Virus record (IMG/VR): IMGVR_UViG_3300030103_004875
Strand: one strand, 5' to 3'
From: a virus
Length of the DNA stretch: 64,000 nt
This document shows, piece by piece, positions 7,308 through 24,807 of the stretch (within the stretch, counting starts at the first letter, position 1; every line of letters starts with the position of its first letter). Position numbers and translations under genes: made by a program. The notes beneath the pieces are model-generated. The model was not told the origin of the DNA. It saw only the letters and a program-made list of their open reading frames with translations, and searched no databases.

Positions 7308-7618
7308 AAAATTTTATGGCGCAGGGAGACTTCCTGTTGGTAGAAAAAATTGATTATGAAGAAGAGAGAACTACGGATTCTGGTATTATTTTTAAAACCA
7401 GCCAAGTTCTAGATACCACCTTTGCAGAGGCAAAGATTATTAGTATGGGCCCCGGAGTTCCCGGAGTGGATGGAAAAATATCCAATCATATTGATTATTC
7501 TGTTGGTGATATTATTCTTTATAATGCAGCCGATCGTATTGGAGTGCATAGCGATTTCGATGTTATTAGACGATCTAATATTATAGCAGTGGTTGGAAAA
7601 TCTGATGAAACTGACTGA
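7304..7618 (+). CDS. GroES-like co-chaperonin (gp31 analogue)
   Basis: GD.LLVE, mobile loop T.SGII, GPG, VGD.I, I.R.S.IIAVV pattern. Confidence 0.75.
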   Translation: MKNFMAQGDFLLVEKIDYEEERTTDSGIIFKTSQVLDTTFAEAKIISMGPGVPGVDGKISNHIDYSVGDIILYNAADRIGVHSDFDVIRRSNIIAVVGKSDETD

Positions 7619-8424: not shown

Positions 8425-9057
8425 ATGACAAAAGTGATTTCTTTTTATTCTGATGTAAATGAGGATAAATACTACACAAAGTGTGCGGATAGACTTCGGG
8501 AAATGTCTTCCCGTTTTTCTCTAGACTTACACCTAGAGGAAAAGGAATCTCTGGGTTCCTATAGAAATAATTGTTTATCGAAACCAAAGTTTATTAAAGA
8601 TAAACTGGAAGAACTCAAACAACCACTGGTGTGGACTGATGTTGATACAGTTTTTAGGCAATATCCACAGGCATTTGATATGGTTCCGGAACATGTTGAT
8701 GTTGCTTTTTCATCCTCATCTCCTGATCTCAGAGGAATGAAGGCCTCTCCTTTGTATTTTAATTATACGGATGGGGCTTTATTTTTCTTGGACGAATGGA
8801 TAAATCGATCGGAACAGGTTTTATTGGATATGGATGTAAACTTTGATCACGAAGTTTTATTTGGAATATTTGGTTCTTGCCAGGAAATGGTGAAGTATGG
8901 CGTATTCCCACCAACATACTGTGTATGGCCGCAGGATGTGAATGAATATACAGTAATTGAGATGGGAATGTCGGACGTTCCTGATAAGATAGAAGTTTTA
9001 AAGAAAATGGGTATAGATGGTAACCTTTTAGCAATACAAACAGTGGGAATACTATGA
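8425..9057 (+). CDS. Nucleotide-diphospho-sugar transferase (GT-A fold)
   Basis: KP.FI...L and W.DVD (DxD) motifs. Confidence 0.7.
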   Translation: MTKVISFYSDVNEDKYYTKCADRLREMSSRFSLDLHLEEKESLGSYRNNCLSKPKFIKDKLEELKQPLVWTDVDTVFRQYPQAFDMVPEHVDVAFSSSSPDLRGMKASPLYFNYTDGALFFLDEWINRSEQVLLDMDVNFDHEVLFGIFGSCQEMVKYGVFPPTYCVWPQDVNEYTVIEMGMSDVPDKIEVLKKMGIDGNLLAIQTVGIL

Positions 9058-9902
9058 AAAAACTACAGTGTGTGGGTGCTGGATTCAATCCAGATCAATC
9101 TTCTAATTCAAATTTAAAACCAAAAACATTTGAATGGTCAAATGAACATCAAGATATTCAAATCTTGATCGATAACTCTATTCTATATGCAAACAAAATA
9201 GATAAGAGATTTGATCAGAAGAGATATGGATGGGTGTGTGAGTCATCAGCAATAGTTCCTCAACTTGCACAATCACTGGAGGACTTCTATGAAGTTATTA
9301 TAGAAGAAGGTGAGTTCGAGGCTATATTTACTAATAATCAAAAATTGTTAGGTCTTGATGATCGTTTCATTTATAATTCAACTGGTAGTAATTTTCCGTG
9401 GATTCCTGTAGAGTCATGGGGAATGCACGACAAAATAAAATTATGTTCTATGGTTGCTTCTCCTAAATTGGCATGTCCCGGACATCAATATAGGCATGAA
9501 ATTGCTTCTAAGTTTAAAAATAAATTAGATTTATTTGGGGGTGCATGTGACTCTCCCCGAATAGGTATTTCTGATGATTTAAATTTGAAATGGAATGATA
9601 AACGATCTGCTATATGTCCATATATGTTCTCGGTAGTAATGGAGAACGAATCTGTTCCAAATTATTATACAGAAAAGGTGACAGATTGTTTTGCGGTAGG
9701 AACGGTTCCCATTTACTGGGGTGCAACGAACATTGGACATCGATTTGATGATCGTGGAATTATATCATTAGATGATAATTTTGATATAGACTCTTTGAGT
9801 GCGGACTTATATGAATCTATGAAACCTTATATTCAAAATAATTTAGAGACAGTACGATCTTTAGAAATGGCTGATGATGAACTTGCAAACAAAATCCTAT
9901 AA
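9054..9902 (+). CDS. GT10 (fucosyltransferase-like) glycosyltransferase
   Basis: YMFSVVMEN...NYYTEKVTDCF..GTVPIYWG signature. Confidence 0.8.
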   Translation: MKKLQCVGAGFNPDQSSNSNLKPKTFEWSNEHQDIQILIDNSILYANKIDKRFDQKRYGWVCESSAIVPQLAQSLEDFYEVIIEEGEFEAIFTNNQKLLGLDDRFIYNSTGSNFPWIPVESWGMHDKIKLCSMVASPKLACPGHQYRHEIASKFKNKLDLFGGACDSPRIGISDDLNLKWNDKRSAICPYMFSVVMENESVPNYYTEKVTDCFAVGTVPIYWGATNIGHRFDDRGIISLDDNFDIDSLSADLYESMKPYIQNNLETVRSLEMADDELANKIL

Positions 9903-10764
9903 ACCTACAATAAAGAACGGTGATTATCTTTTTTCTGATGAATTAACATTTCCATTTCCGGTGGAAATACATTTTACTCGTATGGAGTCATTCGATAATC
10001 CGAATGCTGTCAAAGTTCTTGTGTTGTCAAATGAATCTATGATGTCACCCAATCGATCTACCATAAGTGAGGTCATTGATAATCATAAAAAGTATGATCT
10101 TATTTTAGGAACCGATGATGAAATTATTGTTTTCTGTGAGAATGCCAAAAAGTTTCCGTATGGTAGCACTTGGTTAAATAGAGGAAACATAAAACACCCT
10201 GATGGATTAGGTAGATATGAAGATAATAGTCCATCTTTTGATGGTATTACTAAAGATTTTAGTGTAAGTTTTCTTGCTTCTTGGTACAATCTAAATCGAC
10301 CTGGTTACGCATTAAGGCAACAAGTTTGGAATAGAAAAGAAGAGATACCTATAGCAAGAAATTTTTATACCAGTGTAAAGTGTTTTTCAAATGCACCCAC
10401 TCCTCTACCCGGAGGGGAGAAAGAGGTACTATTCGATTCTCAATATCACATTTGTATAGAAAATCATGCAATAGGAAACTACTTCACAGAAAAACTGATT
10501 GATTCTTTTCTTACATTGAGCATTCCAATTTATTGGGGATGTACCAATATAGAGGATTATTTTGATGTTGACGGAATGATTTTATTTGATACAATAGATG
10601 ATCTATTAGAGAAACTTAACGATATAACTCCAGAACATTATTTCAATAAACTTGATGTCATGAAAGAAAACAAAAAACGAGCGATAGAGTATGCCAACTT
10701 TGATGAAAGAATTTTTAAGGAAATAATAAAGCATGATCGTACAAATAACAATGACCCGAAATGA
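9874..10764 (+). CDS. GT10 (fucosyltransferase-like) glycosyltransferase, second paralogue
   Basis: YHICIEN...NYFTEKLIDSF....IPIYWG signature. Confidence 0.8.
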   Translation: MMNLQTKSYKPTIKNGDYLFSDELTFPFPVEIHFTRMESFDNPNAVKVLVLSNESMMSPNRSTISEVIDNHKKYDLILGTDDEIIVFCENAKKFPYGSTWLNRGNIKHPDGLGRYEDNSPSFDGITKDFSVSFLASWYNLNRPGYALRQQVWNRKEEIPIARNFYTSVKCFSNAPTPLPGGEKEVLFDSQYHICIENHAIGNYFTEKLIDSFLTLSIPIYWGCTNIEDYFDVDGMILFDTIDDLLEKLNDITPEHYFNKLDVMKENKKRAIEYANFDERIFKEIIKHDRTNNNDPK

Positions 10765-11575
10765 ATTGTTTCTTATCAAAGAAATGATGCCTATTTGGCG
10801 GAAGTATGCAGATGCTTTTGTTTTTATGGATGATTGTTCCACTGACGGAACTAGTGAGTGGTTAGAAGAACATAAAGATGAGTTTAATATTGTGTCTGTT
10901 CTTAAAACCGAGGCTGCTGGAGATGCCACACATAAAGAATCAAATGTGAGACAGGCTTTGTTTGATGAGGCATTTAAGCATTCTGGTAATATTATTTGTT
11001 TGGACAGTGACGAGTATCTAGATGGTCACATAAGCAAGGAACAATTAGAGGAAGCACTTGAAAATAATAAAGATACTCTACTGTATTGTCCGTGGATTCA
11101 GTATACCGGAAAGAATAGAGTAAGAGTTGATGGACCTTGGAAAAATAACTTCAAAGACAGAATATCAAGTTACTCCACTAGACCTGAGTTTAAAAAAGCG
11201 GAGATGCACTCCGAACATCTTCCCCATCCGGGTAGACATGGTGTTGTCAATTCTCCCGGTTTATTTATAGCACATTTACAATGGTTAGACAAACCAACTG
11301 TGGCTGTTAAACAATATTTCTGGAAAGTAACTGATTATGTTAATCATGCTACCTATGGTCATGATGTTACTCCTCCCTCTGCGTATGACGAATCTGTTGC
11401 AAATTTTGATTGGGAATATGTTGACTTCGATTTTGATCTGAAGGTGGATCCTGAGATATATTCTAAACAGGATTTGAAAGAAAGTTACAAATATAAGTTC
11501 ATTAAAGAAAATGTAAAAAAATATAATATTCCAAACCTCAATGATTGGGGAATGAATATTCATGGAGATGTATGA
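10733..11575 (+). CDS. GT2-like glycosyltransferase
   Basis: TRNE, DDCSTDGT and LDSDE motifs. Confidence 0.75.
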   Translation: MIVQITMTRNELFLIKEMMPIWRKYADAFVFMDDCSTDGTSEWLEEHKDEFNIVSVLKTEAAGDATHKESNVRQALFDEAFKHSGNIICLDSDEYLDGHISKEQLEEALENNKDTLLYCPWIQYTGKNRVRVDGPWKNNFKDRISSYSTRPEFKKAEMHSEHLPHPGRHGVVNSPGLFIAHLQWLDKPTVAVKQYFWKVTDYVNHATYGHDVTPPSAYDESVANFDWEYVDFDFDLKVDPEIYSKQDLKESYKYKFIKENVKKYNIPNLNDWGMNIHGDV

Positions 11576-12284
11576 TATGGTAACCGAAACGTGTAAAATT
11601 AATAATTTTAATAAGGACTATTTAAAGTATCTGTTTCCCCAGAGAACCAGACTTACTACAGAATATGCCCTTACCGAAGATTCTCCCCAAGAGGAAGTTG
11701 ACGCGGCATTGACAAAGATGAATCAAACAGACTATGATATGATTAAGGATTATCTTCCACAACTCTGTGAAAATTCTTTGGACATTGGTTGTGGCTTGAG
11801 TTTGATTGATGTGGCAATTTACAATCATTATCCTGATAATTATTATCCAAAGAGTAGGGTTCTTGATATTTTTCTTTTGGATAAAACCGAACTCGATACT
11901 ACAAAGATTTCTGGGTTCAATGAGGAGTATAGAGGATATAACAGCATGAGTGCTGCTCGTGAGATAATGACCGAAAACGGAGTTCCTGATGAAAAAATCC
12001 ACACGTTTGAAGTTGATGAGCATGATGAATTATATGAAAAGAAATTTCATCTCATAACTTCACTCTTGTCATGTGGTTGGCATTATAATGTTGATACCTA
12101 TATGGATTTGTTTGAGAAAACTTTACACCCCGAAGGGCGCATCATTATTGATATTAGACATGATACTGGACAAGTTGAAAAAATGAAGTCTAAATTTAAA
12201 TTGGTTAAACAAATTTATAATCACGCCGAATCTAAGCATACTGGTGGAAACATCGGAGATCGATACGTCTTTAAACATAAGTGA
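11562..12284 (+). CDS. Class I SAM-dependent methyltransferase, likely acting on a sugar
   Basis: LDIGCG motif I; located in the glycan cluster. Confidence 0.75.
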   Translation: MEMYDMVTETCKINNFNKDYLKYLFPQRTRLTTEYALTEDSPQEEVDAALTKMNQTDYDMIKDYLPQLCENSLDIGCGLSLIDVAIYNHYPDNYYPKSRVLDIFLLDKTELDTTKISGFNEEYRGYNSMSAAREIMTENGVPDEKIHTFEVDEHDELYEKKFHLITSLLSCGWHYNVDTYMDLFEKTLHPEGRIIIDIRHDTGQVEKMKSKFKLVKQIYNHAESKHTGGNIGDRYVFKHK

Positions 12285-12301
12285 AGTGATAATTATACAT
12301 T

Positions 12302-13615
12302 ATGAAAGAAATTTTAGAACTAGTAGAAAAATTTATCGATGAAAAGAATGAAAAGAAGTCATGGACACCGGGAAAGGACTGGGTTCAATATGCAGGACCA
12401 TATTTTGGTGTAGAGGAATATACTGCTTCTATTAAAACACTACTTGATGGGTGGTTGGTTCTTGGTAAAAATGGCATTCGATTCGAAAATCAGTTTCCTA
12501 AATTGATGCAAAAGGAGTTTGGTGTATTAACTAACAGTGGAAGCAGTTCCAATCTTATAATGATGTCTGCGTTGACATCAAAAAGATTGACAAATTTTCC
12601 TAAAGGCACTAAAGTAATAACTCCTATTGCCGGATTTCCTACTACAATAAATCCTATATTTCAAGTAGGATTTGAACCTGTATTTGTTGATATTGAATTA
12701 GATACTCTAAATTTAAATTTAGATCAGGTTGAGGAACGTGCGAAGGAGGGTTGTAAGATTATAACCTTTGCACATGTTCTCGGAAACCCCCCTAATATGG
12801 ATCGACTAATGGAGATAATAGATGAGTATGGACTCATTCTATTAGAGGACTGCTGTGACGCTCTGGGATCCACCTACAAGGATAGGGCTTTAGGTAGTTA
12901 CGGTGACTTCGCGTCTTGTTCTTTCTATCCCGCACATCATATCACTATGGGTGAAGGTGGATTTGTTGCATGTAATACCAAGATGCAGGAAATTGTTGCT
13001 AGGAGTTTTCGTGAGTGGGGAAGAGGATGCTATTGTGTGGGTCAAAAGGCAGGTCTTCTGAAGAATGGGACATGTAAGAACCGTTTTTCTAATTGGTTAC
13101 CTGCGTTACCTGATGAAATATTTGATCACAAGTATGTGTACGATGAGATAGGATATAATCTCAAACCTACAGATTTACAGGCAGCGATGGGTCTAGTACA
13201 GTTGGATAGACTCCCGGAGATCATAGAAAAGAGAAAGTATAATCATAAAAGATTATGTGATATATTCTCTAAGTATGATGATTATTTTGTAATTCCCAAG
13301 AAAACAGAGCACTCGGATCCTGCTTGGTTTGCATTTGCTTTGACCATAAAAGATAATGCTCCTTTTGCAAGGAAAGATATAGTAGATCATTTAGAGAATG
13401 CAATGATTCAAACTAGACCGTACTTTGCTGGTAATATTATGTTACAGCCTGCTTACGAAGGCCTCATGGATCAGAATCAAATTGTTCGTGATTATCCAAA
13501 TGCAAGAAAAGTTACCACTGATACATTTTTCTTGGGAACTAGTCCGGTCATTACTCCAGAGCAACTCGATTATATTGAAAAAATTGTGGATCAGTTTTGC
13601 GGGGATTTAAAATGA
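12302..13615 (+). CDS. rfbH: NDP-4-keto-6-deoxyglucose 3-dehydratase (E1, RfbH/DdhC)
   Basis: NSGSS.NL, EDCCDALG, SFYPAHHITMGEGG (His in place of the PLP Lys), WGRGCYC..TC Fe-S cysteines, DHKY.Y..IGYNLK. Confidence 0.9.
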   Translation: MKEILELVEKFIDEKNEKKSWTPGKDWVQYAGPYFGVEEYTASIKTLLDGWLVLGKNGIRFENQFPKLMQKEFGVLTNSGSSSNLIMMSALTSKRLTNFPKGTKVITPIAGFPTTINPIFQVGFEPVFVDIELDTLNLNLDQVEERAKEGCKIITFAHVLGNPPNMDRLMEIIDEYGLILLEDCCDALGSTYKDRALGSYGDFASCSFYPAHHITMGEGGFVACNTKMQEIVARSFREWGRGCYCVGQKAGLLKNGTCKNRFSNWLPALPDEIFDHKYVYDEIGYNLKPTDLQAAMGLVQLDRLPEIIEKRKYNHKRLCDIFSKYDDYFVIPKKTEHSDPAWFAFALTIKDNAPFARKDIVDHLENAMIQTRPYFAGNIMLQPAYEGLMDQNQIVRDYPNARKVTTDTFFLGTSPVITPEQLDYIEKIVDQFCGDLK

Positions 13616-14397
13616 AACGAGTGATTAATTGTTATAATCAGTATCATTTGGGTGATTGTATACAGACGTTGCATTTTTTAATACATGCAACTAAGTGCAA
13701 TAATGTAACTTTTAATTTTCTATGCAATCCAGCATATCACTCCCAATTGAAAGAGTTTATAGGAAATGATGGGGTTAATTTATATTCGGTAGTTCCTGCT
13801 GATACAGATCATGAAAATTTTATTAACACATGGATAGGTGCTCATAATTATTCTCAGATATGTGATGATTCTGATGTAATTTTTGGCGATGATTCTGATC
13901 AAGGAACATTTTTTCTCATTTTATCTAAGATTTTATCCGACAAAATGGGAATAGAATGTCCGTTTTCTAAAAAATCAGACATGATCTACAATGAATCCTC
14001 TTTGGAGTCTTCTTGCGAGACATCCATCGACTCTTACGATTATTTGTTTATCAATAGTCAAAACATGAGCATTCCCTTTCCAAATTTTGAAGAAGAGGTA
14101 TCAAGTTTTATTGAACGGTTGCAGTTTAAGAATAAAAAGGTTATTACAACTACAAAATATCTTGACCTTCCTTGTACTCTGGATTATAATTTTAGTGTAG
14201 TGGACATTGCAAAATTATCTAAAAATGTTAAACATATTGTAGGTGTCAACACGGGTCCACTACACCTTTGCATGAATAAATGGACAATTGAGAATGTGGA
14301 AAGTTTTACAGTATGGTGTCCCGCAGAAACCTTTAATTACGGATCTAAGTTTAGATCCGTAAAATCCCTTGGAGAGATAGATGAGAGTAATCTTTAG
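13612..14397 (+). CDS. Probable GT-B glycosyltransferase (GT9-like)
   Basis: N-terminal HLGD and C-terminal VGVNTGP.H motifs. Confidence 0.55.
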   Translation: MKRVINCYNQYHLGDCIQTLHFLIHATKCNNVTFNFLCNPAYHSQLKEFIGNDGVNLYSVVPADTDHENFINTWIGAHNYSQICDDSDVIFGDDSDQGTFFLILSKILSDKMGIECPFSKKSDMIYNESSLESSCETSIDSYDYLFINSQNMSIPFPNFEEEVSSFIERLQFKNKKVITTTKYLDLPCTLDYNFSVVDIAKLSKNVKHIVGVNTGPLHLCMNKWTIENVESFTVWCPAETFNYGSKFRSVKSLGEIDESNL

Positions 14398-15169
14398 TAT
14401 TATTTTAAATGGCAAACATCATTTGTTACACAATGATCAATATAGATTTATATTAGATAATTGTGATAAGTGGGTGGTAGTAGAAGGCGCATCCCAATCT
14501 AATGGTAGCACTCAGTGGTGTAAAACCATTCCTGATGAATATCACAATAACGGTGCAAGTGTCGATGGTACTAGAGAGTTTATGGAAGAGTTGGCGAAAA
14601 CAGAATCCAATTTAGTATACGTTCCCTCTGATGGTTTCTGGAATTCTAAAGACGATCAGGTAAATCGTGCAATCGAAGAAGTCAAGAAACTCACTGACAA
14701 ATGTTTTCTTTGGGAATTTGACATCGATGAACAGTGGACAGCAGAGGCACTTGATCAGGGAGAGAAAGAACTGACGGAAGGTAATCTAAAGTATGCCGGG
14801 TTTATGAGTAGATATTATGTTGGTAAGAATTTGCTCGCAAAAGGTCATTGGGGTGAAGGAAGGGATGGGGGTTACATCAGACTATGGGATTGGGAAGGTG
14901 AATCTTTTGTTCGTCATGAACCTCCAACTCTGGAGGGATGTGAGGATAAAGAAGGTAAGATGCTGAGTCCTATATTTGATCATTACAGTTATTATTTCGA
15001 CGAGGATGTTAAATTTAAAGATGCTTGGTATAGTGGTCACGAAAACATTTATGAAAGATGGAAGTACGTTAACTCTTTACCCAAAGAAGTTTTCCCGATC
15101 CACATTTCAGCGTTGATCACTGGGTACTGGGGAACAACTGATACTGGTATATTTTGGGAAGATCTATGA
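14381..15169 (+). CDS. Probable GT2-like glycosyltransferase
   Basis: VVEGA, S.DGT and W.FDIDE motifs. Confidence 0.65.
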   Translation: MRVIFSIILNGKHHLLHNDQYRFILDNCDKWVVVEGASQSNGSTQWCKTIPDEYHNNGASVDGTREFMEELAKTESNLVYVPSDGFWNSKDDQVNRAIEEVKKLTDKCFLWEFDIDEQWTAEALDQGEKELTEGNLKYAGFMSRYYVGKNLLAKGHWGEGRDGGYIRLWDWEGESFVRHEPPTLEGCEDKEGKMLSPIFDHYSYYFDEDVKFKDAWYSGHENIYERWKYVNSLPKEVFPIHISALITGYWGTTDTGIFWEDL

Positions 15170-15816
15170 AAAAATTAATATGTTTTAGTCTATGGGGGAA
15201 TGACAAGAAGTATACTAGTGGTGCTATTGAAAACTTAGAATTGGCTTCTACCTATTATCCCGGATGGATTTGTAGATATTATATTTCTAAAGAAAATACT
15301 TCACCTGAACTTATACGAAAAATGAAAGAATATGATAATTGCGAAGTCTTCATGCATGATCAAATAGATTCACAATGTCAAAGACTAATTAGATTCTTCC
15401 CTCTTCAGGAATCTGATGTTGAATATTTTATCGTAAGGGATTTGGATTCTCGGTTAGGCAGAAGAGAGGCCTCTGCTGTGGAGGAGTGGATACAATCTGG
15501 GCATGATTACCATATAATGAGAGACAATGTGGAACATGCAGTTCCTATGATGGCTGGGATGTGGGGAGCAAAGGGTAACCTTGTTCCTGATTTTTCTTCT
15601 CTAGTAGAGAAGCATAAGTTAACATTGGGAGAAGAGTTTGATACCAATGTTCAAGTGGATCAGCAGTTTCTTTGGAATTACATCATACCCAAAATTAAAA
15701 GTGCATTAGTTCATGATGAAAGCACTCATCTTGGGGGAAATAAATATCCTACAGAGAGATTAGAAAATGAAATTCCTGAGTTTATAGGTCAATCATATGA
15801 AGATTTTGTATTATGA
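15166..15816 (+). CDS. GT-A-like glycan cluster protein
   Basis: ICFSLWG...KY..GA..N, RF.P, VRDLDSR, H.MRD...H, MAGMWG and DQ.FL motifs. Confidence 0.6.
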   Translation: MKKLICFSLWGNDKKYTSGAIENLELASTYYPGWICRYYISKENTSPELIRKMKEYDNCEVFMHDQIDSQCQRLIRFFPLQESDVEYFIVRDLDSRLGRREASAVEEWIQSGHDYHIMRDNVEHAVPMMAGMWGAKGNLVPDFSSLVEKHKLTLGEEFDTNVQVDQQFLWNYIIPKIKSALVHDESTHLGGNKYPTERLENEIPEFIGQSYEDFVL

Positions 15817-16781
15817 ATATTGAAGAAAAAAAAGTAGTTTATGTCACTGGATGTCTGGGATTTATTGGATCTTATGTCACTAGATTATGCCTGGATCGTG
15901 GTTGGTATGTAAAGGGTGTTGATAAAATAACCTATGCTGCCAATAAAAATCTTCTCTCGGAGTTTGAATCCTACGATAATTTTTCATTTGTGCATTGTGA
16001 TATAAACGAGTTAAAATTTTTATATGACTGTGATTATGTGATTAATACGGCAGCAGAAACACACGTTGGTAATTCTATTGCGAATAGTGATGATTTTGTT
16101 GAGTCCAATATAAACGGTGTGCATAATATTTTAGAGTTGATAAAAAATTATCGACAAGAACACACCAAGGTTCCTACTCTGTTACATTTCAGCACAGATG
16201 AGGTGTATGGGGATATAGAGGATGGTGCGCACACGGAAAATGATATATTAAAGCCTTCTAACCCTTATTCTGCAACTAAGGCGGCCGCCGACATGTTAGT
16301 GCTGGCGTGGGCCAGAACTTATAATATCCCATATGTGATTGTTCGTCCCACCAATAATTATGGCATTGGCCAGTATGTTGAAAAATTAATACCAAAGGCT
16401 TGTAAGTTCTTGAAACTTGGTAGAAAAATACCACTTCACAATAATGGAACACCTGTCCGAAATTGGTTACATGCAGAGGATACGGCTAACGCTGTTATAA
16501 AGATTATTGAGTCTGGTATGAATAATGAAATTTATAACATCGCTGGCGGGTTTGAACAAACCAACATGGATACTGTTCATAAGTTAATTTCTGTATTGAC
16601 AGACGGGGAAGAATATGATATAAAAGACTATGTTGATACCTCATTTTCTCGTGTGGGACAAGATTTAAGGTATGCTTTGGATGACTCTAAACTTCGCTCT
16701 TTGGGATGGGAACCCAAGAAAGACTTTGATACAGAAATCATCGACATAGTAAATTACTACAAGAATAAATTTATATGGTAA
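15813..16781 (+). CDS. NDP-glucose 4,6-dehydratase (RmlB-like)
   Basis: TGCLGFIG, DKITYA, AAETHV, STDEVYG, YSATK and NNYG motifs. Confidence 0.88.
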   Translation: MNIEEKKVVYVTGCLGFIGSYVTRLCLDRGWYVKGVDKITYAANKNLLSEFESYDNFSFVHCDINELKFLYDCDYVINTAAETHVGNSIANSDDFVESNINGVHNILELIKNYRQEHTKVPTLLHFSTDEVYGDIEDGAHTENDILKPSNPYSATKAAADMLVLAWARTYNIPYVIVRPTNNYGIGQYVEKLIPKACKFLKLGRKIPLHNNGTPVRNWLHAEDTANAVIKIIESGMNNEIYNIAGGFEQTNMDTVHKLISVLTDGEEYDIKDYVDTSFSRVGQDLRYALDDSKLRSLGWEPKKDFDTEIIDIVNYYKNKFIW

Positions 16782-18589
16782 ACGATAGTAAAATTAGGGT
16801 AGCAGATTACATTGCAAATAAGATTCATGAAATGGGAGTGAATCATATTTTCACTATAACTGGCGGTGGTGCCATGTTTTTGAATGATGCAATATTAAGA
16901 AATCCCAATATAGAAGCTATTTGTGGTCACCACGAACAAGCGTCTGCAATGTCAGCCGTTGGTTATTCTAAGTACAGCGGAAAGTTGGGAGTTGTAATGC
17001 CAACAACAGGTTGTGGTGCAACCAATACCATAACGGGGTTATTGGATGCGTGGCAAGATAATGTTCCCATGCTTTTTGTATCGGGTCAGATAAATTCTCA
17101 CCAAACAATGAGTAATTATGATTTACCATTGAGACAGATTGGTGTTCAAGAAGCAGATATTGTTGAGATAGTAAAGAGTATCACTAAATATGCAGTTCTA
17201 GTTGATGATCCAAAACAAATTCGATACCATATGGAACGAGCGATCCACGAGGCCTTTTCGGGTAGACCCGGTCCTGTTTGGTTAGATATTCCTTTGGATA
17301 TTCAATCCACTCTCATAGATCCGGAATCTTTGGTTGGGTATCATCATACCGCCTCCGATGCTTTTGATGAGATATGGTGGTCTTGGCCAAAACCTGATTT
17401 AGAAGAGGTGAGTGAGTATTTTCGTTGTGCTCAACGTCCGGTAATATTAGCGGGTAATGGTGTAAGGTTATCTGGAGCCAGTGAGGAATTTAAACAGTTT
17501 GTAGAGAAATATAATATTCCAGTGGTTAATACTTATCTTGCAGCAGATCTATTACCAACAGATCATCCGCTCAACATAGGTAGAGTTGGAATTAAGGGCA
17601 ATAGAGCAGCCAATTTTGCATTGCAGAATTCTGATCTAGTATTAACGATAGGGACTAGACTAGGAATTCCTGTTACGGGTTACATTTATGAAAACTTTGC
17701 ACGAGAGGCAAAACTTGTTGTTGTCGATATTGATGATAAAGAACATCAAAAGAACACTATAAAGATAGACAAATTTATCCACTCGGACGCAAAAAAGTTT
17801 TTACAAAGATTTGAAGCCTCAAAGTGCCCAGACAACTGGTCCAAACAATGTTTAGGGTGGAAAACTAATTGGCCCGTATTTTCGGAAGAACATTTAAATG
17901 ACAGTGACGGTATAAGTTTTTACGGATTTATGAAAGTTCTTTCTGAATGCACTAGGGACGATGACGTTGTGGTTTCTGATGCCGGATCTGCTTATTATGT
18001 TTCCTCTCAAGCGGTTCATATAGAAAAAAATCAGAGGTATATTACTTCCGGTGCTCAAGCCGATATGGGATTCACGTTGCCTGCCAGCATAGGTGTTTCG
18101 GTTGCAAAAGATAGCGGAGATGTAATTGGTATTGTTGGGGACGGTTCGTTCCAAACAAATATTCAGGAATTGCAAACAATGGTTCACAATAAATTGCCTG
18201 TCAAAATGTTTGTTTGGAATAACAATGGTTATCTCTCTATTAGAACAACACAAAGAAAGTTTTTTGATGACGGATTTATTGGAACCGATGTAGATTCGGG
18301 TGTGTCGTTCCCCGATCTTGAAAAGGTATCAGATGCGTATGGTATAAAGTATATACGATCATCCGATATAAATAAACTGAAAGATGATATTAACGAGTCT
18401 TTGAGTCATAATGGGCCCGTGATATGTGAAGTGATTTGTAAAGAATGGGATGAAGTATTGCCTACTATTAGTAGTAAGAAACTACCAAACGGAAAAATGT
18501 TTTCTAAACCCTTAGAGGACATGTATCCCTTTTTGTCTCGTGAAGAATTTTTGAACAACATGATTGTAACCCCTGTGGAGGAAATTTAA
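16775..18589 (+). CDS. ThDP-dependent acetolactate-synthase-like enzyme (YerE-type carboligase)
   Basis: GGGAMFLND, HHEQA, SGRPGPVWLDIPLD and GDGSF..N.QEL...NNNGY ThDP motif; sugar-cluster context. Confidence 0.82.
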   Translation: MVNDSKIRVADYIANKIHEMGVNHIFTITGGGAMFLNDAILRNPNIEAICGHHEQASAMSAVGYSKYSGKLGVVMPTTGCGATNTITGLLDAWQDNVPMLFVSGQINSHQTMSNYDLPLRQIGVQEADIVEIVKSITKYAVLVDDPKQIRYHMERAIHEAFSGRPGPVWLDIPLDIQSTLIDPESLVGYHHTASDAFDEIWWSWPKPDLEEVSEYFRCAQRPVILAGNGVRLSGASEEFKQFVEKYNIPVVNTYLAADLLPTDHPLNIGRVGIKGNRAANFALQNSDLVLTIGTRLGIPVTGYIYENFAREAKLVVVDIDDKEHQKNTIKIDKFIHSDAKKFLQRFEASKCPDNWSKQCLGWKTNWPVFSEEHLNDSDGISFYGFMKVLSECTRDDDVVVSDAGSAYYVSSQAVHIEKNQRYITSGAQADMGFTLPASIGVSVAKDSGDVIGIVGDGSFQTNIQELQTMVHNKLPVKMFVWNNNGYLSIRTTQRKFFDDGFIGTDVDSGVSFPDLEKVSDAYGIKYIRSSDINKLKDDINESLSHNGPVICEVICKEWDEVLPTISSKKLPNGKMFSKPLEDMYPFLSREEFLNNMIVTPVEEI

Positions 18590-18590
18590 T

Positions 18591-19514
18591 ATGCCAGCGG
18601 ACAGCAAAACTAAAAAAACAATTTTAACACTCAACAACAATAAAAAGAATAATGACCCTACAGTTCTGGTGACTGCGTATGATTATCCTCAAGCAAGGAT
18701 TGCAGACATGGCTGGAGTTGATGCTATCTTGATCGGTGACTCTCTCGGAATGACAACTCTTGGTCACAAGACAACAATTCCGGTTACTATGGATAATATG
18801 ATTGCGTCATCCGAAGCAGTTTGTAGGGGAGCAAAGAATGCCTTAATTATTGGTGACATGCCCTATATGTCATATCAGCAGTCGAATGAACTCGCGGTAG
18901 AGAACGCCGGTAGGTTTATCGTTGCTGGTTGTGATATGGTTAAGGTAGAGGGTGCAATGACGGAGCGAATCAGAGCAATCTGTGATGCTGGTATCATGGT
19001 TATGAGTCACCTTGGACTTACTCCACATACACGAGCAAAACTTGGTGGATATAAGGTTCAGGGCAAGACTGCAAAACAAGCAGAGATTGTTCTGAAGCAA
19101 GCCTTAGAATTACAGGATGCGGGCTGCTCCGCGCTTCTCCTAGAAGCGATGCCAAAGGAACCGGCCGGAATGATTGCAAAGGAATTGGATATTCCTGTCT
19201 ATGGAATTGGTGCAGGTGATGAGGTTGATGGGCAGTTGGTTATTTTCCATGATCTCATGGGACTTTTCTGGGAATTTAAATCTAAGTTTGTTAAGAGATA
19301 CTGTGAAGCAGGTCAAATTATGGCAAGTGCTCTTACCGATTATGTTAATGAAGTTCGTAGCCGACAATTTCCAGCAGAGGAAAACTTCTATGAAATTAAA
19401 GAAGAGGAACTTGAAAAATTGCTTGGAGATTCTAAGTGGAAATATGAAACGGATCAAGGATTCCCGACAAATCACTCAGCAACTCCAAATACGGTAACCG
19501 ATAAAGACAAGTGA
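18591..19514 (+). CDS. panB: Ketopantoate hydroxymethyltransferase family protein
   Basis: TAYDY, L.GDSLGM, GDMPYMSY, VKVEG, HLGLTP, GG.KVQGK, GIGAG..DGQ..I.HD..G. Confidence 0.9.
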   Translation: MPADSKTKKTILTLNNNKKNNDPTVLVTAYDYPQARIADMAGVDAILIGDSLGMTTLGHKTTIPVTMDNMIASSEAVCRGAKNALIIGDMPYMSYQQSNELAVENAGRFIVAGCDMVKVEGAMTERIRAICDAGIMVMSHLGLTPHTRAKLGGYKVQGKTAKQAEIVLKQALELQDAGCSALLLEAMPKEPAGMIAKELDIPVYGIGAGDEVDGQLVIFHDLMGLFWEFKSKFVKRYCEAGQIMASALTDYVNEVRSRQFPAEENFYEIKEEELEKLLGDSKWKYETDQGFPTNHSATPNTVTDKDK

Positions 19515-20290
19515 ATATATTAGTAACAGGTGGTAATGGATATATTGCCAAAAGTCTTGTTAAAGGGTTTTCTGGTAAGTACAATATAACTAGTGTCACT
19601 AGGAATGATTTTGATCTATCGGATCCCGTTCTTACTTCTGAGTGGTTTAGAACTAGAGAATTTGATGTTGTTGTTCATACTGCGGCCGTCGGGGGAAGTA
19701 GGTTGTCTCCCGACGGCCCTGATGTTCTTCGGCAAAATTTGATGATGTATTATAATTTATTGTCAAATAAAAAATCTTTCGGTAGGTTAATATCTTTTGG
19801 ATCTGGTGCAGAACTGTTTCATAAAGAAACTCCATATGGTATGAGCAAGAGCATAATATCTGAGTCCATAAGAAATACTGATAATTTCTATAACCTGAGA
19901 GTATTCGCAGTTTTTGATGAGAACGAACTGGATAGAAGATTTATAAAATCAAGTATAAATCGTTATATTAATAAACAACCAATTATCATACACTCGGAAA
20001 AAATTATGGATTTTTTCTATATGCAAGATTTAATTTCTTTGGTAGAATACTATATTAACAATGATAACCTTGAAAAAGAAATTAATTGTTCGTATCAAGG
20101 GAAAAAAACACTATTAGAAATTGCTTCCATTATAAATGATCTAGATAATTATACTGTTCCTGTTTTTATAGAAACAAAAGATTATGGATTTTATTGTGGG
20201 GTGAGTGATTTGCCTATTAAGACTTATGGGTTGGAATCTGGTATAGAGAAAACCTACAAAATTATGAAAGATAATTGTAATGAAAATTGA
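19511..20290 (+). CDS. NAD-dependent epimerase/reductase (extended SDR)
   Basis: TGGNGYI, FGSGAE and YGMSK motifs. Confidence 0.82.
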   Translation: MNILVTGGNGYIAKSLVKGFSGKYNITSVTRNDFDLSDPVLTSEWFRTREFDVVVHTAAVGGSRLSPDGPDVLRQNLMMYYNLLSNKKSFGRLISFGSGAELFHKETPYGMSKSIISESIRNTDNFYNLRVFAVFDENELDRRFIKSSINRYINKQPIIIHSEKIMDFFYMQDLISLVEYYINNDNLEKEINCSYQGKKTLLEIASIINDLDNYTVPVFIETKDYGFYCGVSDLPIKTYGLESGIEKTYKIMKDNCNEN

Positions 20291-21182
20291 CAATGTAATA
20301 TTTTCCACATCAGAAGAATATAGTAAGTTCTGGAACATCCAGTCCAAAATTTATAAAACTGCTCTGGGAATAGAACCTATCTGCATTCTTTATGGCAAAA
20401 AGAGTAACACCGACATGTCTGAAGAATATGGGACTATTATCGAGAGAGAATTTATTGAAAACTTGCCAAAGGTCTTACAGATAACATGGTCCAAATTTGA
20501 TTATACAAAAACCGATCCAGAAAAAACTTGGATGATTGGTGATATTGATCTTATTCCTCTCAATAAAGAATACTTTACATCGAATATAGATTCTGCACCA
20601 GAAGATTCTTATCTACATTTAAATTTCTCAGCAATATCTGTTGTCAGGCGAGGTGTTCTGGACGGCTTTATAAAGGAAGGTCCGGCGGTTCTTAGGCGAA
20701 TTAGATATGGTTGTCACGATAGTGGTGCAGACTTACCAGCACATTATCATGTTTCTAAGGGTAGTAATTTTATTAATTTGTACGAATTAAATAGATCCTT
20801 TGATGAGCAAATACGTCATATAGTAGACTCTGGAATTTATGGTCACGGAGCACACTGTCAACCCCCGTGGCCAAAACCATCCCAAGATGAACTAATGAAT
20901 TTTGAAAGTTTTTATTGGTTAGCAGAAGAAAATTATTCATCAGTGATGCTTTATAATGCACTATCTGATAATAAGATAAAATTTATAGGTTATCATTACG
21001 ATAATAGAATAAACAGAATCGATAGGAGCATGTGGTCAGATGAGAAAAATGATTATGTGTATGATATTAATCTATTAAAACAGAAACATGTTGTTGATTT
21101 ACATTGTTATCGTCCCTTCGATAAACAAAAAGAACAAATGAATAGAATAATTGATGAGTCTGAAATTTTTTCTGATAAATGA
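20280..21182 (+). CDS. Glycan cluster protein, probable GT-A glycosyltransferase
   Basis: GDIDLIPL DxD motif, C-terminal D.H..RP; context. Confidence 0.5.
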   Translation: MKIDNVIFSTSEEYSKFWNIQSKIYKTALGIEPICILYGKKSNTDMSEEYGTIIEREFIENLPKVLQITWSKFDYTKTDPEKTWMIGDIDLIPLNKEYFTSNIDSAPEDSYLHLNFSAISVVRRGVLDGFIKEGPAVLRRIRYGCHDSGADLPAHYHVSKGSNFINLYELNRSFDEQIRHIVDSGIYGHGAHCQPPWPKPSQDELMNFESFYWLAEENYSSVMLYNALSDNKIKFIGYHYDNRINRIDRSMWSDEKNDYVYDINLLKQKHVVDLHCYRPFDKQKEQMNRIIDESEIFSDK

Positions 21183-22540
21183 AAAATCTTATTTGTATAA
21201 CTGGGAGTTCTGGTGTAGGTAAAAGTACTTTATCTAAGTTTTTATATTTTATTTTTGGGTGTAATGATGTAGTGACTATAAATGGTGATGATGCTCACAA
21301 GTGGGAACGTGGAGATACCAATTGGAACATACACACACATTTGAATCCATCATCTAATAATTTACATGAAGAGATTGAAAGTTTAAAAAAACTAATTTCC
21401 GGTGAATCAATAATGAGAAAAAGATACAATCACGACACTGGAAAATTTGACGCTCCTGTTAATATTGATCCAAAAGAAATCATATTGTATGAGGGTTTAC
21501 ATGCTCTATATGGTACTATGTCTGAATTATGTGACATTGGTATTTTTGTAGAAACAGAGAGAGATTTACTGACACAATGGAAAGTTGAGAGAGATACTAC
21601 AAAGCGGGGATATACTGTTGATGAAGTAAAGTCGGCAATAAAAAGAAGAGAAATTGATGAATCCTTATATATTGAACCACAGAAACAAAAGGCTGATATA
21701 ATTATTAGATTCGAAGAAAAAAGAGATAAAAAGGTTCATCTCGAATGCACATATGTAACGGGTGTCGGTAAGGAAATAGGAAAAAAAATAAAAACCATGT
21801 ATGATAGGCATAGAGATTTTCTTTCTCTTTGCGAAATGACTTCTCTTGAATATGATTTAGTTCAACACCAAGGCGGGAACATCTCCTATAAATTCGAAGA
21901 TAAGATGGTGATAACTTCATCTGGGAAAAATATGGGAGATGTTACTTTACTCGATGGGTTTAGTTTATGTGATAGTGAGGGAAACCTTCTAGACTTTAGT
22001 CAAAATCGACCATCTATGGAGTACGGGGTACATTTAAAGATACCACATAATTTTGTTTTACATACACATCCTATTCATTTGAATACTATTCTTTGCTCCA
22101 AGGAATCTAAAAAAATTGTTTCTGAAATCTTAAAGGATTATGATTATAACTACGTTCCATACTTTACTCCGGGACAAGACTTGAAGAATAACTTTATACC
22201 CAATTCAGAAAACACTATAAATTTATTAGAGAGTCATGGTTTGATTTGTTCGGGTTATTCTTTTCAGGAAGTTTTTACAACTAGTATGGAAATAAACCAA
22301 TTATGTAAAATTTGGTTACTTAAAAACTCTAAGAATTTTAAACAATTTTCCACAAAAAATAAAGTTCATGGGTTTTTATTTCCTGATGCTGTGGTGTTGC
22401 CGGAATCTATGCGATCTGTTAATGATTATATGTTGAGTTTGCACAGAGAAGTCGGACTGACTTCTAATTTTCTTTCGGAAAAGGAAATACATAAACTGAG
22501 TGGTATGGAAGAGGAAAAATATAGGAAATCTTTAGTATGA
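21179..22540 (+). CDS. Fusion of phosphoribulokinase/uridine-kinase-like P-loop kinase and class II aldolase/epimerase
   Basis: GSSGVGKS, D.HKWER, YNH.TG.F, EGLH; C-terminal GGNISYK, ITSSG, PSME...H, HTHP, HG metal motifs. Confidence 0.8.
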   Translation: MKNLICITGSSGVGKSTLSKFLYFIFGCNDVVTINGDDAHKWERGDTNWNIHTHLNPSSNNLHEEIESLKKLISGESIMRKRYNHDTGKFDAPVNIDPKEIILYEGLHALYGTMSELCDIGIFVETERDLLTQWKVERDTTKRGYTVDEVKSAIKRREIDESLYIEPQKQKADIIIRFEEKRDKKVHLECTYVTGVGKEIGKKIKTMYDRHRDFLSLCEMTSLEYDLVQHQGGNISYKFEDKMVITSSGKNMGDVTLLDGFSLCDSEGNLLDFSQNRPSMEYGVHLKIPHNFVLHTHPIHLNTILCSKESKKIVSEILKDYDYNYVPYFTPGQDLKNNFIPNSENTINLLESHGLICSGYSFQEVFTTSMEINQLCKIWLLKNSKNFKQFSTKNKVHGFLFPDAVVLPESMRSVNDYMLSLHREVGLTSNFLSEKEIHKLSGMEEEKYRKSLV

Positions 22541-23364
22541 AAATTATTGTTCCCATGGCCGGGCTAGGTCAAAGATTTGTGGATGCAGGATATACTGATC
22601 CAAAACCGTTAATACATGTTGCAAACAAAAAAGTAATAGAACATATAGTCGATATGTTTTCTGTTGATGATGAGTTTATTTTCATTTGTAATGAGGATCA
22701 TTTGTCCCAAACAAATATGAAAGAAGTTTTACACGAAATTTGCAAAAAATGTAAAATTGTATCGATGCCCTCCCACAAAAAGGGCCCAGTTTTTACCGTT
22801 CAGCAGGTTTACGATTTAATAGATGACGACGAAGAGGTTGTAGTTACTTATTGCGATAACCCATATTTATGGGATAGAGAAGACTTCTTGGAGTATGTGA
22901 AGAAAAATAAGTTAGACGGTTGTATATTGTCGCATTCTGGATTTCATCCGCATACACTCAACAATACAAAAATGGCTTTTATGAGAACTGTTAATAATTT
23001 AGTTACAGAAATAAAAGAAAAAGAGTGCTACACAGATAATCCAATGAATGAACATGCCTCCACCGGAACTTACTACTTTAGTAAAGGTTCTTACATAAAA
23101 AAATATTTTGATGAAGCAGTCATTAATAATATTCAATACAACGGGGAATATTATGTAACTCTTGTATATAACCTATTAATAAATGATGGGTTATTGGTTG
23201 GTTATTATGACACACCTTTTGCCACGGTTATGGGTACACCCGAAGAGGTGGATAATATTGAGGCATGGAACTCTATTTTAAATAAAGGTCAAGTTAAAAA
23301 TGAAGATGACTTATTGAATTGTTATCGCTATTGGAAAGATTATTATGAGAGTGATTTACGTTGA
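22537..23364 (+). CDS. Sugar-phosphate nucleotidyltransferase (BcbE-like)
   Basis: IVPMAG.G.RF..AGY..PKPLI, EK, G.YYF, NGEYY and GTPEE motifs. Confidence 0.82.
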   Translation: MKIIVPMAGLGQRFVDAGYTDPKPLIHVANKKVIEHIVDMFSVDDEFIFICNEDHLSQTNMKEVLHEICKKCKIVSMPSHKKGPVFTVQQVYDLIDDDEEVVVTYCDNPYLWDREDFLEYVKKNKLDGCILSHSGFHPHTLNNTKMAFMRTVNNLVTEIKEKECYTDNPMNEHASTGTYYFSKGSYIKKYFDEAVINNIQYNGEYYVTLVYNLLINDGLLVGYYDTPFATVMGTPEEVDNIEAWNSILNKGQVKNEDDLLNCYRYWKDYYESDLR

Positions 23365-23641
23365 TGTTGACGAAACAATATGCAATACGCCGGACAACCC
23401 AAGAGTGTATGAAGATGCAAAACCGATCCAAGAAAATATCGATAAAATTAATAGACTATATGACGAGGGAAATACAATAGTGTATTGGACTGCAAGAGGA
23501 AGTCGTAGCGGTATTGATTGGTTTGATTTAACAAAATCTCAATTATCTAATTGGGGTGCGAAACATCATAAACTTAGATGTGATAAGCCCTATTACGATA
23601 TTTTCTATGATGATAAGACAATGAGAATTGAAGAAATATGA
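23345..23641 (+). CDS. Minimal HAD phosphatase (capsule biosynthesis phosphatase, BcbF-like)
   Basis: DVDETIC, YWTARG and KP..D...DDK motifs. Confidence 0.82.
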   Translation: MRVIYVDVDETICNTPDNPRVYEDAKPIQENIDKINRLYDEGNTIVYWTARGSRSGIDWFDLTKSQLSNWGAKHHKLRCDKPYYDIFYDDKTMRIEEI

Positions 23642-24081
23642 AATTAATAGCCCACAGGGGAAATACCAACGGTCCCAATTTAAAAAGAGAAAATACTCAA
23701 TCATATATTGATGAGTCTATAGGTAAGGGATATGACGTAGAAATAGATGTTTGGGTGGTAAAGGGTGAATTATTTTTAGGTCATGATGAACCGATTAGTA
23801 TGGTTGATTTGGAATGGTTACTTGGTAGGTCTAAAAATTTATGGATACATTGTAAAAATTTTAATTCTTTGCAGTTTCTATTGAATTATGATCAATTAAA
23901 ATTATTCTTCCATGAAGAAGAAAGATACACAATTATTAGTAATGGTTTAATATGGGCCCATGATTTGAGAGAAGTAAATGATCAGTGTATAATACCGTTG
24001 TTGTCCGAGGAAGATTTGGTTTCTTGGAACCCCACCGAGGTTTTTGGTATTTGTTCTGATTATGTTGATTATTTAAAATAA
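23638..24081 (+). CDS. Short glycerophosphodiester-phosphodiesterase-like protein
   Basis: IAHRGN, EN, DVEIDVW, LGHD, WIHCKN and GICSDY motifs. Confidence 0.78.
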   Translation: MKLIAHRGNTNGPNLKRENTQSYIDESIGKGYDVEIDVWVVKGELFLGHDEPISMVDLEWLLGRSKNLWIHCKNFNSLQFLLNYDQLKLFFHEEERYTIISNGLIWAHDLREVNDQCIIPLLSEEDLVSWNPTEVFGICSDYVDYLK

Positions 24082-24098
24082 AGAACTGGAATATAAAA

Positions 24099-24773
24099 AT
24101 GAGAACTCCCGAGATACACTATGGTACAAATTTTGGTAAATATATTGTTAGTCTAATCGTTAATAATAAATCAATTCAGAGAGTTATAGAGATAGGTTCT
24201 GGTAGCGGCAATGGCTCCACACAATGTCTTGCCGCTGCACTCCAGGCTAATCAGACGGAAAATACTAAACTAGTTTGTATGGAGCCAACTGAATATTTTA
24301 GTGATCTAGAAAAAAATACAGAAAACTTTTCTTTTGTGGAATGTCATAAGAATACCAGTATTTCATATGATTCGTTTTCATTAAAAAATTATGAAGATTA
24401 TATCTCGTACTGTATCGAGCATAGGGAAGTATTGAACTCCTTGAAAGGCAGAGAATTGGAATCTGTACGAGAGGACCTCGAATCCCGTATCAACTGGTAC
24501 AATCAGGATATAGTTCATTTTAAAGGATCAGATACAGGGGTTTTAAATAATCTGACAGAAGACTATGATCTGTGTTTGATTGATGGTAGCGAATTTTCTG
24601 GATATGACGAATTTTTATTAGTTAAAGATAGAGTAAGTATAATTCTTCTCGATGATGATAATGAATATAAAAACTACAAAACTAAACTTCACCTAAGCGA
24701 AGATAATGATTGGATATGTGTTGGACACGAGGCAGAAAGAAATGGGTGGAGTTCATGGATACGTAGGAAATGA
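24099..24773 (+). CDS. Class I SAM-dependent methyltransferase-like protein
   Basis: EIGSGSG.GST, LIDG.EF.G..EF, LDD and RNG motifs. Confidence 0.65.
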   Translation: MRTPEIHYGTNFGKYIVSLIVNNKSIQRVIEIGSGSGNGSTQCLAAALQANQTENTKLVCMEPTEYFSDLEKNTENFSFVECHKNTSISYDSFSLKNYEDYISYCIEHREVLNSLKGRELESVREDLESRINWYNQDIVHFKGSDTGVLNNLTEDYDLCLIDGSEFSGYDEFLLVKDRVSIILLDDDNEYKNYKTKLHLSEDNDWICVGHEAERNGWSSWIRRK

Positions 24774-24775
24774 AC

Positions 24776-24783
24776 TATACATA
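24776..24783 (+). promoter_or_regulatory. Late-promoter variant (TATACATA) upstream of GT2-TPR
   Basis: One mismatch to TATAAATA; intergenic, about 25 nt before the ATG. Confidence 0.4.
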
Positions 24784-24807
24784 CAATGAACAAAAGGATT
24801 TTTTATC

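Follow-up and report, generated by a model that had tools for sequence, protein, structure and literature searches.

The closest described relatives of the locus reported here are gene clusters for acyl-branched sugars. In erwiniose biosynthesis, the aldolase ErwI, which is encoded beside the YerE-like carboligase ErwE, supplies 4-hydroxy-2-oxopentanoate; ErwE refuses pyruvate but takes 4-hydroxy-2-oxobutanoate, 4-hydroxy-2-oxopentanoate and 4-hydroxy-2-oxohexanoate, and the reductase ErwF comes next (PMC9306805). The caryophyllose and gastriose clusters follow the same pattern, with a gene of the "aldolase/citrate lyase family" (PMC9306805). The YerE/YerF route to cytidine diphosphate (CDP)-yersiniose A in Yersinia pseudotuberculosis also combines a 4,6-dehydratase, an E1-type 3-dehydrase, a thiamine diphosphate (ThDP)-dependent carboligase and a reductase, but YerE uses pyruvate as the donor, so no donor-making enzyme is needed. 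We analyzed the IMG/VR virus record IMGVR_UViG_3300030103_004875 (64,000 nucleotides; "the window" refers to this whole stretch), in which a YerE-like gene is followed directly by a gene for PanB, a member of the ketopantoate hydroxymethyltransferase (KPHMT) family. We propose that this PanB probably makes a γ-hydroxy-2-oxoacid donor for the ThDP enzyme, which would yield a 4-C-branched 3,6-dideoxyhexose. An earlier note on this DNA had suggested that PanB makes a hydroxymethylated 2-oxoacid that the ThDP enzyme grafts onto the sugar, and this is still the best-supported reading in view of the YerE-like ThDP enzyme, the PanB clade and an aldolase that takes the place of PanB in sister loci.

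The phage island and the Erw, MMAR_2331/2332 and MygI-MyGE-MygF clusters (Steitz et al. 2022, PMC9306805) share genes for a nucleoside diphosphate (NDP)-4-keto-3,6-dideoxyhexose and a YerE-like carboligase. Those clusters add an adjacent enzyme that makes a 4-hydroxy-2-oxoacid and an NAD(P)H-dependent branch reductase, roles for which PanB and the SDR (short-chain dehydrogenase/reductase) are the candidates in the island. The island differs in having PanB, an enzyme of one-carbon (C1) transfer from methylene-tetrahydrofolate (methylene-THF), instead of a pyruvate aldolase, and in having an RmlB-like dehydratase where those clusters have one of the CDP-glucose type. It also differs in its setting, a lytic marine phage, and in the lack of membrane export genes and of an E3 reductase, which Yersinia has (AscD). 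By analogy with these systems, the scheme that we propose would be a PanB-bearing variant of the established acyl-branched-sugar logic.

Core genes of the island

The genes on which the argument rests are the following.

12302..13615, + strand: E1/RfbH-type pyridoxamine 5'-phosphate (PMP)-dependent NDP-4-keto-6-deoxyhexose 3-dehydrase with [2Fe-2S] cysteines (NF011936)
15813..16781, + strand: RmlB-like NDP-hexose 4,6-dehydratase (PF16363 at 1.7e-56)
16775..18589, + strand: YerE-like ThDP-dependent carboligase with three domains (PF02776, PF00205, PF02775)
18591..19514, + strand: PanB, KPHMT family (TIGR00222, NF001452, PF02548)
19511..20290, + strand: short extended SDR (PF01370, GxxGxxG and YGMSK motifs)

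The gene order given in the earlier note (4,6-dehydratase, ThDP enzyme, PanB and SDR, tightly coupled, with RfbH/E1 upstream) agrees with the open reading frames (ORFs) found: the RmlB-like and ThDP genes overlap by 7 nucleotides, the ThDP-PanB junction reads TAA-T-ATG with GGAGG upstream, and the PanB and SDR genes overlap within GTGA. The note did not mention three ORFs (13597 to 15816) that lie between the RfbH and RmlB-like genes. Its statements that the window holds no panC/D/E, no ilvC/D and no visible E3 (DdhD) stood up, as we detected no pan, ilv, ferredoxin (Fer2) or FNR domain, and hence no dedicated E3 of the AscD/DdhD kind, among the approximately 60 window ORFs scanned.

A YerE-like ThDP enzyme

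The best solved relative of the window ThDP enzyme was JanthE from Janthinobacterium sp. HH01 (8rph), a characterized YerE-like enzyme (PMC12188165), with an end-to-end score of 442 bits, compared with 255 bits for the best acetohydroxyacid synthase (AHAS). The protein also fell below every AHAS equivalog cut-off (at best 371 bits versus 538), and no AHAS small subunit is encoded. The motifs GDGSFQTN (the GDG..N motif) and HHEQ (with the catalytic Glu) align with JanthE, although JanthE has CDG where the window enzyme has the canonical GDG. The scores against JanthE and AHAS point to a YerE-type carboligase and not an acetolactate synthase, as the earlier note had also supposed. Its neighbors are an RmlB-like gene immediately upstream and an RfbH gene 3 kb upstream. 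For JanthE itself, the physiological substrates are not established and a link to PanB is not reported (PMC12188165).

Catalytic residues of PanB and its virus-only clade

The window PanB scored above the equivalog cut-offs of TIGR00222 (283 bits versus 207.55) and NF001452 (321.8 versus 272) and reached 329 bits with PF02548. In an alignment of 83 viral and 77 cellular PanBs, the residues D50, S51, D89, K118, E120, H140 and E185 were invariant; this set comprises the Mg2+ ligands, the carboxylate-binding S51 and K118 and the catalytic Glu, all of which are intact. The fold, the Mg ligands, the Lys and the catalytic Glu are shared with the housekeeping PanB/KPHMT enzymes of Escherichia coli (1m3u) and Neisseria meningitidis (1o66; 196 bits against the window protein). 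Unlike these, the window PanB lies in a clade made up of viruses only, has a YerE-like neighbor and no panC or panE partner, and carries the substitutions G139S, Q146H and E175Q. The first two are fixed in the viral clade at positions where every one of the 77 cellular PanBs compared has the same residue, and E175Q, A179C, P231S and L119V are additionally fixed. Also unlike the housekeeping enzymes, residues 268 to 307 (window 19390-19514) form a conserved C-terminal tail of the viral clade (LLG..WKYE..NHSATP.T) that was found in none of the cellular PanBs. The clade-fixed substitutions next to the catalytic His140 could mean that the 2-oxoacid has changed.

The viral clade occupied one side of a branch with Shimodaira-Hasegawa (SH)-like support of 100 (all trees were FastTree or quick IQ-TREE builds). 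The phylogenetic check proposed in the earlier note thus gave a virus-specific, cluster-linked clade that does not group with the housekeeping enzymes. Only two cellular contigs had PanB matches above 60% identity, and both carried the same PanB-ThDP pair. These are a contig binned with a Pelagibacter metagenome-assembled genome (MAG; L081) and a contig of the Prochlorococcus single-cell genome AG-670-O13 (L082), each with the phage-type pair; the assignments may be host hints or binning artifacts. The next cellular match, at 59%, was on a Chloroflexi groundwater MAG contig (L083) with the gene set ThDP-PanB-DegT-SDR, and all remaining cellular matches were about 50% identical and had no ThDP neighbor. 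Only one to three of the 80 cellular PanB loci had the gene set, which in these scans was otherwise nearly confined to viral contigs. L083 is the sole cellular-labelled contig outside the phage clade with this gene set, and it may be close to the source from which PanB was recruited or may itself be viral.

A second viral type of PanB, 45 to 55% identical, was also found beside ThDP genes of class 0, one of the four classes of ThDP partner described below. Both this type and L083 retain G139 and Q146, and G139S plus Q146H was for this reason rejected as a general signature of YerE linkage; the only change shared is E175Q. Gln at position 175 is present in L083 and in 6 of 7 PanBs of the second type (the seventh, L320, has Leu), compared with Glu in 74 of 77 unlinked PanBs, so that E175Q is common to the YerE-linked PanBs of three lineages. 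On the PanB tree the YerE-linked proteins formed at least two to three groups.

These data bear on the view that PanB is an ordinary auxiliary metabolic gene (AMG) that boosts host pantothenate and coenzyme A (CoA), its place in the island being a matter of hitch-hiking. Viral pantoate transferase has been read in this way in the virome literature (PMC8940887), single pathway steps are often carried by phages, and the scores above the equivalog cut-offs and the intact catalytic residues would suit such a role. However, the clade-fixed changes at otherwise invariant columns speak against it, and so does the absence of panC, ApbA/panE and ilvD from five large related viral records, two of which are at least 90% complete. 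Within the window ORFs scanned and these five records, the phage PanB does not lie in a pantothenate-pathway context.

Linkage of PanB with YerE-like genes

PanB relatives were found in at least 111 IMG/VR loci, and the neighborhood counts are based on the best 80 of these (71 to 94% identity). A ThDP gene was located within a few kilobases of PanB, and mostly adjacent to it, in 79 of the 80 viral loci, which were selected through PanB and include many close relatives, so that this and the following counts overstate independence. DegT-family genes were present in 70 of the loci, RmlB-like genes in 60 and relatives of the short window SDR in 55, while clustering of ORFs assigned one or more proteins of the broader SDR superfamily to 78 (the RmlB-like dehydratase falls in the same cluster). 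The neighborhood search suggested in the earlier note thus recovered the association that it had envisaged. Given that PanB is close to a ThDP gene in nearly all related loci, the arrangement is not due to chance.

The ThDP partners fell into four classes with only 28 to 37% mutual identity (45, 17, 15 and 2 loci), all of which matched JanthE first and PpYerE (5ahk) next, before AHAS, and both gene orders, ThDP-PanB and PanB-ThDP, were seen. The similarity of the PanBs did not follow the ThDP class: class-2 loci have PanBs 77 to 85% identical to that of the window together with ThDP enzymes that are only about 34% identical. This recurrence of a YerE-like gene beside PanB, across four ThDP classes and in both orders, also counts against a host pantothenate function. 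In 12 related loci of the PanB-then-ThDP class (L007:8446-9999 and 11 others), a B12-binding radical SAM (S-adenosylmethionine) enzyme is encoded directly upstream of PanB, and its role may be to methylate either the donor or the branch.

We also examined the linkage from the side of the ThDP enzyme. On a 191-row tree of YerE-like proteins, PanB linkage required at least seven to nine changes, two of which were artifacts of cut loci, and at least four to five PanB-linked lineages were separated by cellular clades without PanB. Among viral YerE-like loci with a ThDP enzyme at least 48% identical to that of the window, 50 of 57 had PanB (three of the seven lacking it were truncated), and PanB was present in 1 of the 23 with a more distant ThDP enzyme. 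A search of cellular genomes with a single protein query returned only four loci, and an alignment-based scan gave the 80 nearest (38 to 55% identical). No PanB was found within 10 kb in any of these 80 cellular loci; an RfbH-like gene was found in 45 and an RmlB-like gene in 39.

An aldolase in the position of PanB

Four viral loci nested in ThDP class 0 lacked PanB. In two of them (L291 and L292), the ThDP gene stops at position 7764 and the next gene starts at 7766, exactly in the PanB slot; it encodes a 275-amino-acid protein of the HpcH/HpaI aldolase family and is followed by a 144-amino-acid ORF and then a 258-amino-acid SDR. The ThDP enzymes of these loci, which are orthologous to that of the window, were 50% identical to it, and the SDR (of L292), likewise an orthologue, was 42% identical to the window SDR. 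PF03328 matched 11 of 11 homologues of the slot protein, with a best E-value of 1.3e-11, and the best solved structures for a joint profile of the 11 were YfaU, HpcH/HpaI "hydroxyketoacid aldolases" and HpaI. The possibility that the slot gene is a diverged panB was rejected, as the pairwise E-value was 0.23 and all 11 homologues match HpcH_HpaI. Eight cellular loci and one other viral locus (L303) also have the aldolase just downstream of their ThDP gene. Overall, HpcH/HpaI aldolases occurred in 0 of 128 PanB-linked versus 11 of 110 PanB-less loci (Fisher, 1.6e-4, a value that ignores relatedness), and none was found in the window.

HpcH/HpaI pyruvate aldolases are the kind of enzyme from which the erwiniose and caryophyllose pathways obtain their 4-hydroxy-2-oxoacid donors. 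Since the aldolase occupies the same slot and belongs to an enzyme type with the same product class (a 4-hydroxy-2-oxoacid), PanB is likely the donor maker. Published work has employed KPHMT together with YfaU as an enantiocomplementary pair for coupling 2-oxoacids with formaldehyde (PMC7611260), and by this analogy the replacement of an aldolase by PanB would be chemically natural. The aldolase of the sister loci is also difficult to reconcile with PanB as a pantothenate AMG, and we consider that explanation very unlikely.

A different sequence of events, the second option of the earlier note, would have the ThDP enzyme add an acetyl branch derived from pyruvate, as YerE does, after which PanB would hydroxymethylate the acetyl methyl group or, alternatively, a carbon beside the 4-keto group. 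This would fit the ThDP-then-PanB gene order of the window, and an α-hydroxyketone could conceivably chelate Mg2+ as a 2-oxoacid does. However, the catalytic residues, including the carboxylate-binding S51 and K118, show no change, the PanB-then-ThDP order is equally common in other classes, and the HpcH/HpaI enzyme that replaces PanB is a pyruvate aldolase acting on free acids. In the erwiniose system, moreover, such an order of steps was tested and rejected (PMC9306805). Hydroxymethylation after branching thus appears unlikely, and we favor PanB as the source of the donor.

Sugar-precursor enzymes and the SDR

The product of 12302-13615 passed the RfbH equivalog NF011936 (471.6 bits versus a cut-off of 423) and gave a full-length alignment with E1 (structure 3bcx; 364 bits). 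It keeps SFYPAHHITMGEGG, which is identical to E1 around His220, the His that replaces the aminotransferase Lys (PAHH motif). Its [2Fe-2S] cysteines (CC, CxC and C) line up with those of E1, with a last spacer of 12 residues versus 7. Both hallmarks of E1-type enzymes, the catalytic His and the [2Fe-2S] cysteines, have been described (PMC8987622). His was present at the catalytic column in all 72 of the 72 DegT proteins of the PanB loci (as PAHH, FGHH, FGHQ or ASHV); about 53 of the 72 retain the E1 CxC motif, and the remainder look ColD-like. By this conserved His, the DegT partners are 3-dehydrases, none of them a transaminase, and the loci are accordingly predicted to make a 3-deoxy-4-keto sugar and not an amino sugar.

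The nature of the DegT proteins is relevant to the idea that the joint product of the ThDP enzyme, PanB and the SDR is a free hydroxy acid resembling pantoate, which would be linked to the glycan as an O- or N-acyl substituent, without any C-branch. An AHAS-like enzyme, PanB and a ketoreductase are indeed reminiscent of both ends of the pantoate route, and unusual hydroxyacyl groups occur on amino sugars. However, with dehydrases as the only DegT partners there would be no amino group for N-acylation, the island has neither an acyl-activating enzyme nor an acyltransferase, there is no ilvC or ilvD to join acetolactate to ketoisovalerate, and the ThDP enzyme is YerE-like and not an AHAS. We regard an acyl substituent as highly improbable and return to the C-branched sugar.

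The missing E3 has a precedent. SpnQ of the spinosyn forosamine pathway is likewise an E1-type Fe-S 3-dehydrase, acts on a deoxythymidine diphosphate (dTDP)-sugar and works without a dedicated E3 by using general ferredoxin/flavodoxin reductases (PMC8987622), although it differs from the phage E1 in belonging to an actinomycete antibiotic pathway and in its 2,6-dideoxy substrate. No Fer2 domain was detected in the five large related viral records either.

The 4,6-dehydratase scored 301.5 bits with TIGR01181, below the cut-off of 365, and merely 74.7 bits with the CDP-glucose type, and it is on these scores predicted to be RmlB-like rather than of the CDP-glucose type. The SDR, encoded directly 3' of PanB, has the Rossmann GxxGxxG motif and YGMSK (YxxxK), and it is proposed to be a YerF/ErwF-like reductase of the branch carbonyl.

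Proposed pathway

The assignment of families, the intact catalytic motifs, the linkage of PanB with YerE-like genes and the aldolase in the PanB slot are observations, whereas we infer all of the chemical steps that follow, together with the identity of the donor, the nucleotide carrier and the glycan target. The RmlB-like enzyme would turn an NDP-hexose into NDP-4-keto-6-deoxyhexose, and the E1-type dehydrase would take off the 3-OH with electrons from the host ferredoxin/flavodoxin system, as in the case of SpnQ. PanB would use methylene-THF to hydroxymethylate a host 2-oxoacid to a 4-hydroxy-2-oxoacid; the window also encodes ThyX, so the phage already draws on the host methylene-THF pool. 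The YerE-like enzyme would then decarboxylate this acid on ThDP and attach the resulting acyl anion at C4 of the keto sugar, giving a tertiary alcohol, and the SDR would reduce the branch carbonyl. Finally, the many soluble glycosyltransferases would move the sugar to an acceptor that is likewise soluble, probably one of the virion proteins, for example the neighboring collagen-like fiber.

Because PanB still scores as an equivalog, the simplest donor route would be from 2-ketoisovalerate to ketopantoate, leading to a 1,3-dihydroxy-2,2-dimethylpropyl branch; we would assign this particular route about half of the weight that we give to the hypothesis as a whole.

Several points weigh against the proposed scheme. 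C3 of ketopantoate is quaternary, and we know of no ThDP carboligase that accepts such a donor; the quaternary carbon may make it a poor ThDP substrate. To our knowledge, there is also no known sugar structure that matches the proposed product. With a score above its equivalog cut-off and about 50% identity to housekeeping enzymes, PanB could on sequence grounds still have an unchanged vitamin role. The pairing of an RmlB-like dehydratase with an E1-type dehydrase does not define a nucleotide carrier, and the scheme does not account for the three lineage-specific ORFs that separate RfbH from RmlB. The aldolase swap was seen in no more than two or three viral loci and eight cellular ones, and the linkage counts overstate independence, as mentioned above.

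Genomic setting of the island

The core genes belong to a glycan island of approximately 18 kb (8425-26043) that sits between regA and gp43 and consists of co-oriented, mostly overlapping genes. Its remaining parts and the gene that follows it are listed here.

8425..12284, + strand: upstream glycosyltransferase array with two GT10-like ORFs, one GT2 and two ORFs without assignment (Pfam; no transmembrane [TM] segments)
13597..15816, + strand: three overlapping soluble ORFs of 266, 262 and 220 amino acids, probably glycosyltransferases (no Pfam, NCBIfam or PHROG match)
20280..26043, + strand: downstream part with a GT-A-like ORF, a phosphoribulokinase (PRK)/class II aldolase fusion, a nucleotidyltransferase, an HAD-like ORF, an unassigned ORF, a methyltransferase and a GT2-TPR protein (Pfam, NCBIfam, PHROG)
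26086..27489, + strand: collagen-repeat, tail-fiber-like protein directly 3' of the island (PF01391 at 1.2e-27; tail-fiber PHROGs)

The three ORFs at 13597-15816, of which the 266-amino-acid member has a GT9-like fold lead, lie outside the conserved core and are missing from nearly all related loci. For the six unassigned ORFs of the island, PHROGs, Pfam and NCBIfam returned nothing, and atlas look-ups gave glycosyltransferase-type leads only and no E3-like reductase. In the downstream part, at 21179-24081, one protein joins a phosphoribulokinase/uridine-kinase domain to a class II aldolase/epimerase domain, and 3' of the gene for this fusion are a divergent nucleotidyltransferase (phrog_3980), a 98-amino-acid HAD-like ORF (phrog_1238) and a 147-amino-acid unassigned ORF, the last three with relatives in 11 to 25 of the 80 related loci. 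This group of genes possibly provides the route to the activated sugar precursor.

Upstream of the island are genes for the gp45 sliding clamp, the gp44 and gp62 clamp-loader subunits, a Cpn10-like protein and RegA, and downstream are a dUTPase-like gene and genes for gp43 DNA polymerase, UvsX, gp41 helicase, gp61 primase, ThyX and NrdA. The clamp loader shared no more than 57% identity with any phage record, with Pelagibacter phage Mosig, Methylophilales Melnitz phages and cyanomyophages at the top. Together, the clamp-loader relatives and the T4-type replication genes around the island identify the window as an uncultured marine T4-like myovirus. A megablast search of 50,697 phage records with the cassette gave no match, and tblastn with PanB gave distant matches only (at most 46%; the best was Microcystis phage MaAM05), leaving the cassette without a cultured relative. 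The T4 late promoter TATAAATA occurred in the window at chance level (5 observed versus 4.5 expected).

Other features of the window were an inserted Cpn10/GroES-like gene that separates the clamp-loader genes for gp44 and gp62 (7304-7618) and a 340-amino-acid ORF 3' of NrdA with a weak match (22 bits) to phosphate-selective porin O/P (41375-42397). On the minus strand, an 856-amino-acid protein (48124-50694) combines an N-terminal cytidylyltransferase-like domain with a C-terminal HNH motif, and a phage-encoded DruA-like (Druantia) protein (51152-51958) adjoins a PD-(D/E)XK nuclease (51951-52616).

Glycan target and implications

No TM-like segments were found in the island proteins, and Pfam, NCBIfam and PHROG searches of the island detected no Wzx, Wzy, WecA-type or ABC-export genes. 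From these absences and the adjoining collagen-repeat fiber gene we infer, with low to moderate confidence, a cytoplasmic glycosylation of phage proteins, for which the collagen-repeat fiber would be a candidate target. In its most specific form, the hypothesis is that these abundant phages make an undescribed 3,6-dideoxyhexose with a 4-C-(1,3-dihydroxy-2,2-dimethylpropyl), "pantoyl-like" branch derived from ketopantoate and, by means of an entirely soluble machinery, put it on virion proteins of their own, the collagen-like fiber for instance; we offer this as a tentative possibility that is more likely to be wrong than right in its details.

If true, the most abundant "vitamin AMG" of the ocean virome would be a virion-glycan gene, and in at least 111 IMG/VR loci a common marine viral AMG would have to be reread as belonging to glycan synthesis. 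The logic of acyl-branched sugars would be extended by the recruitment of a C1-transfer enzyme from vitamin metabolism in the place of an aldolase, with a new family of branched deoxysugars and a new donor scope for biocatalytic ThDP carboligases as predictions. More broadly, the island suggests that lytic marine phages carry out elaborate glycosylation without the involvement of membranes, with roles that may include virion stability, receptor binding and evasion.

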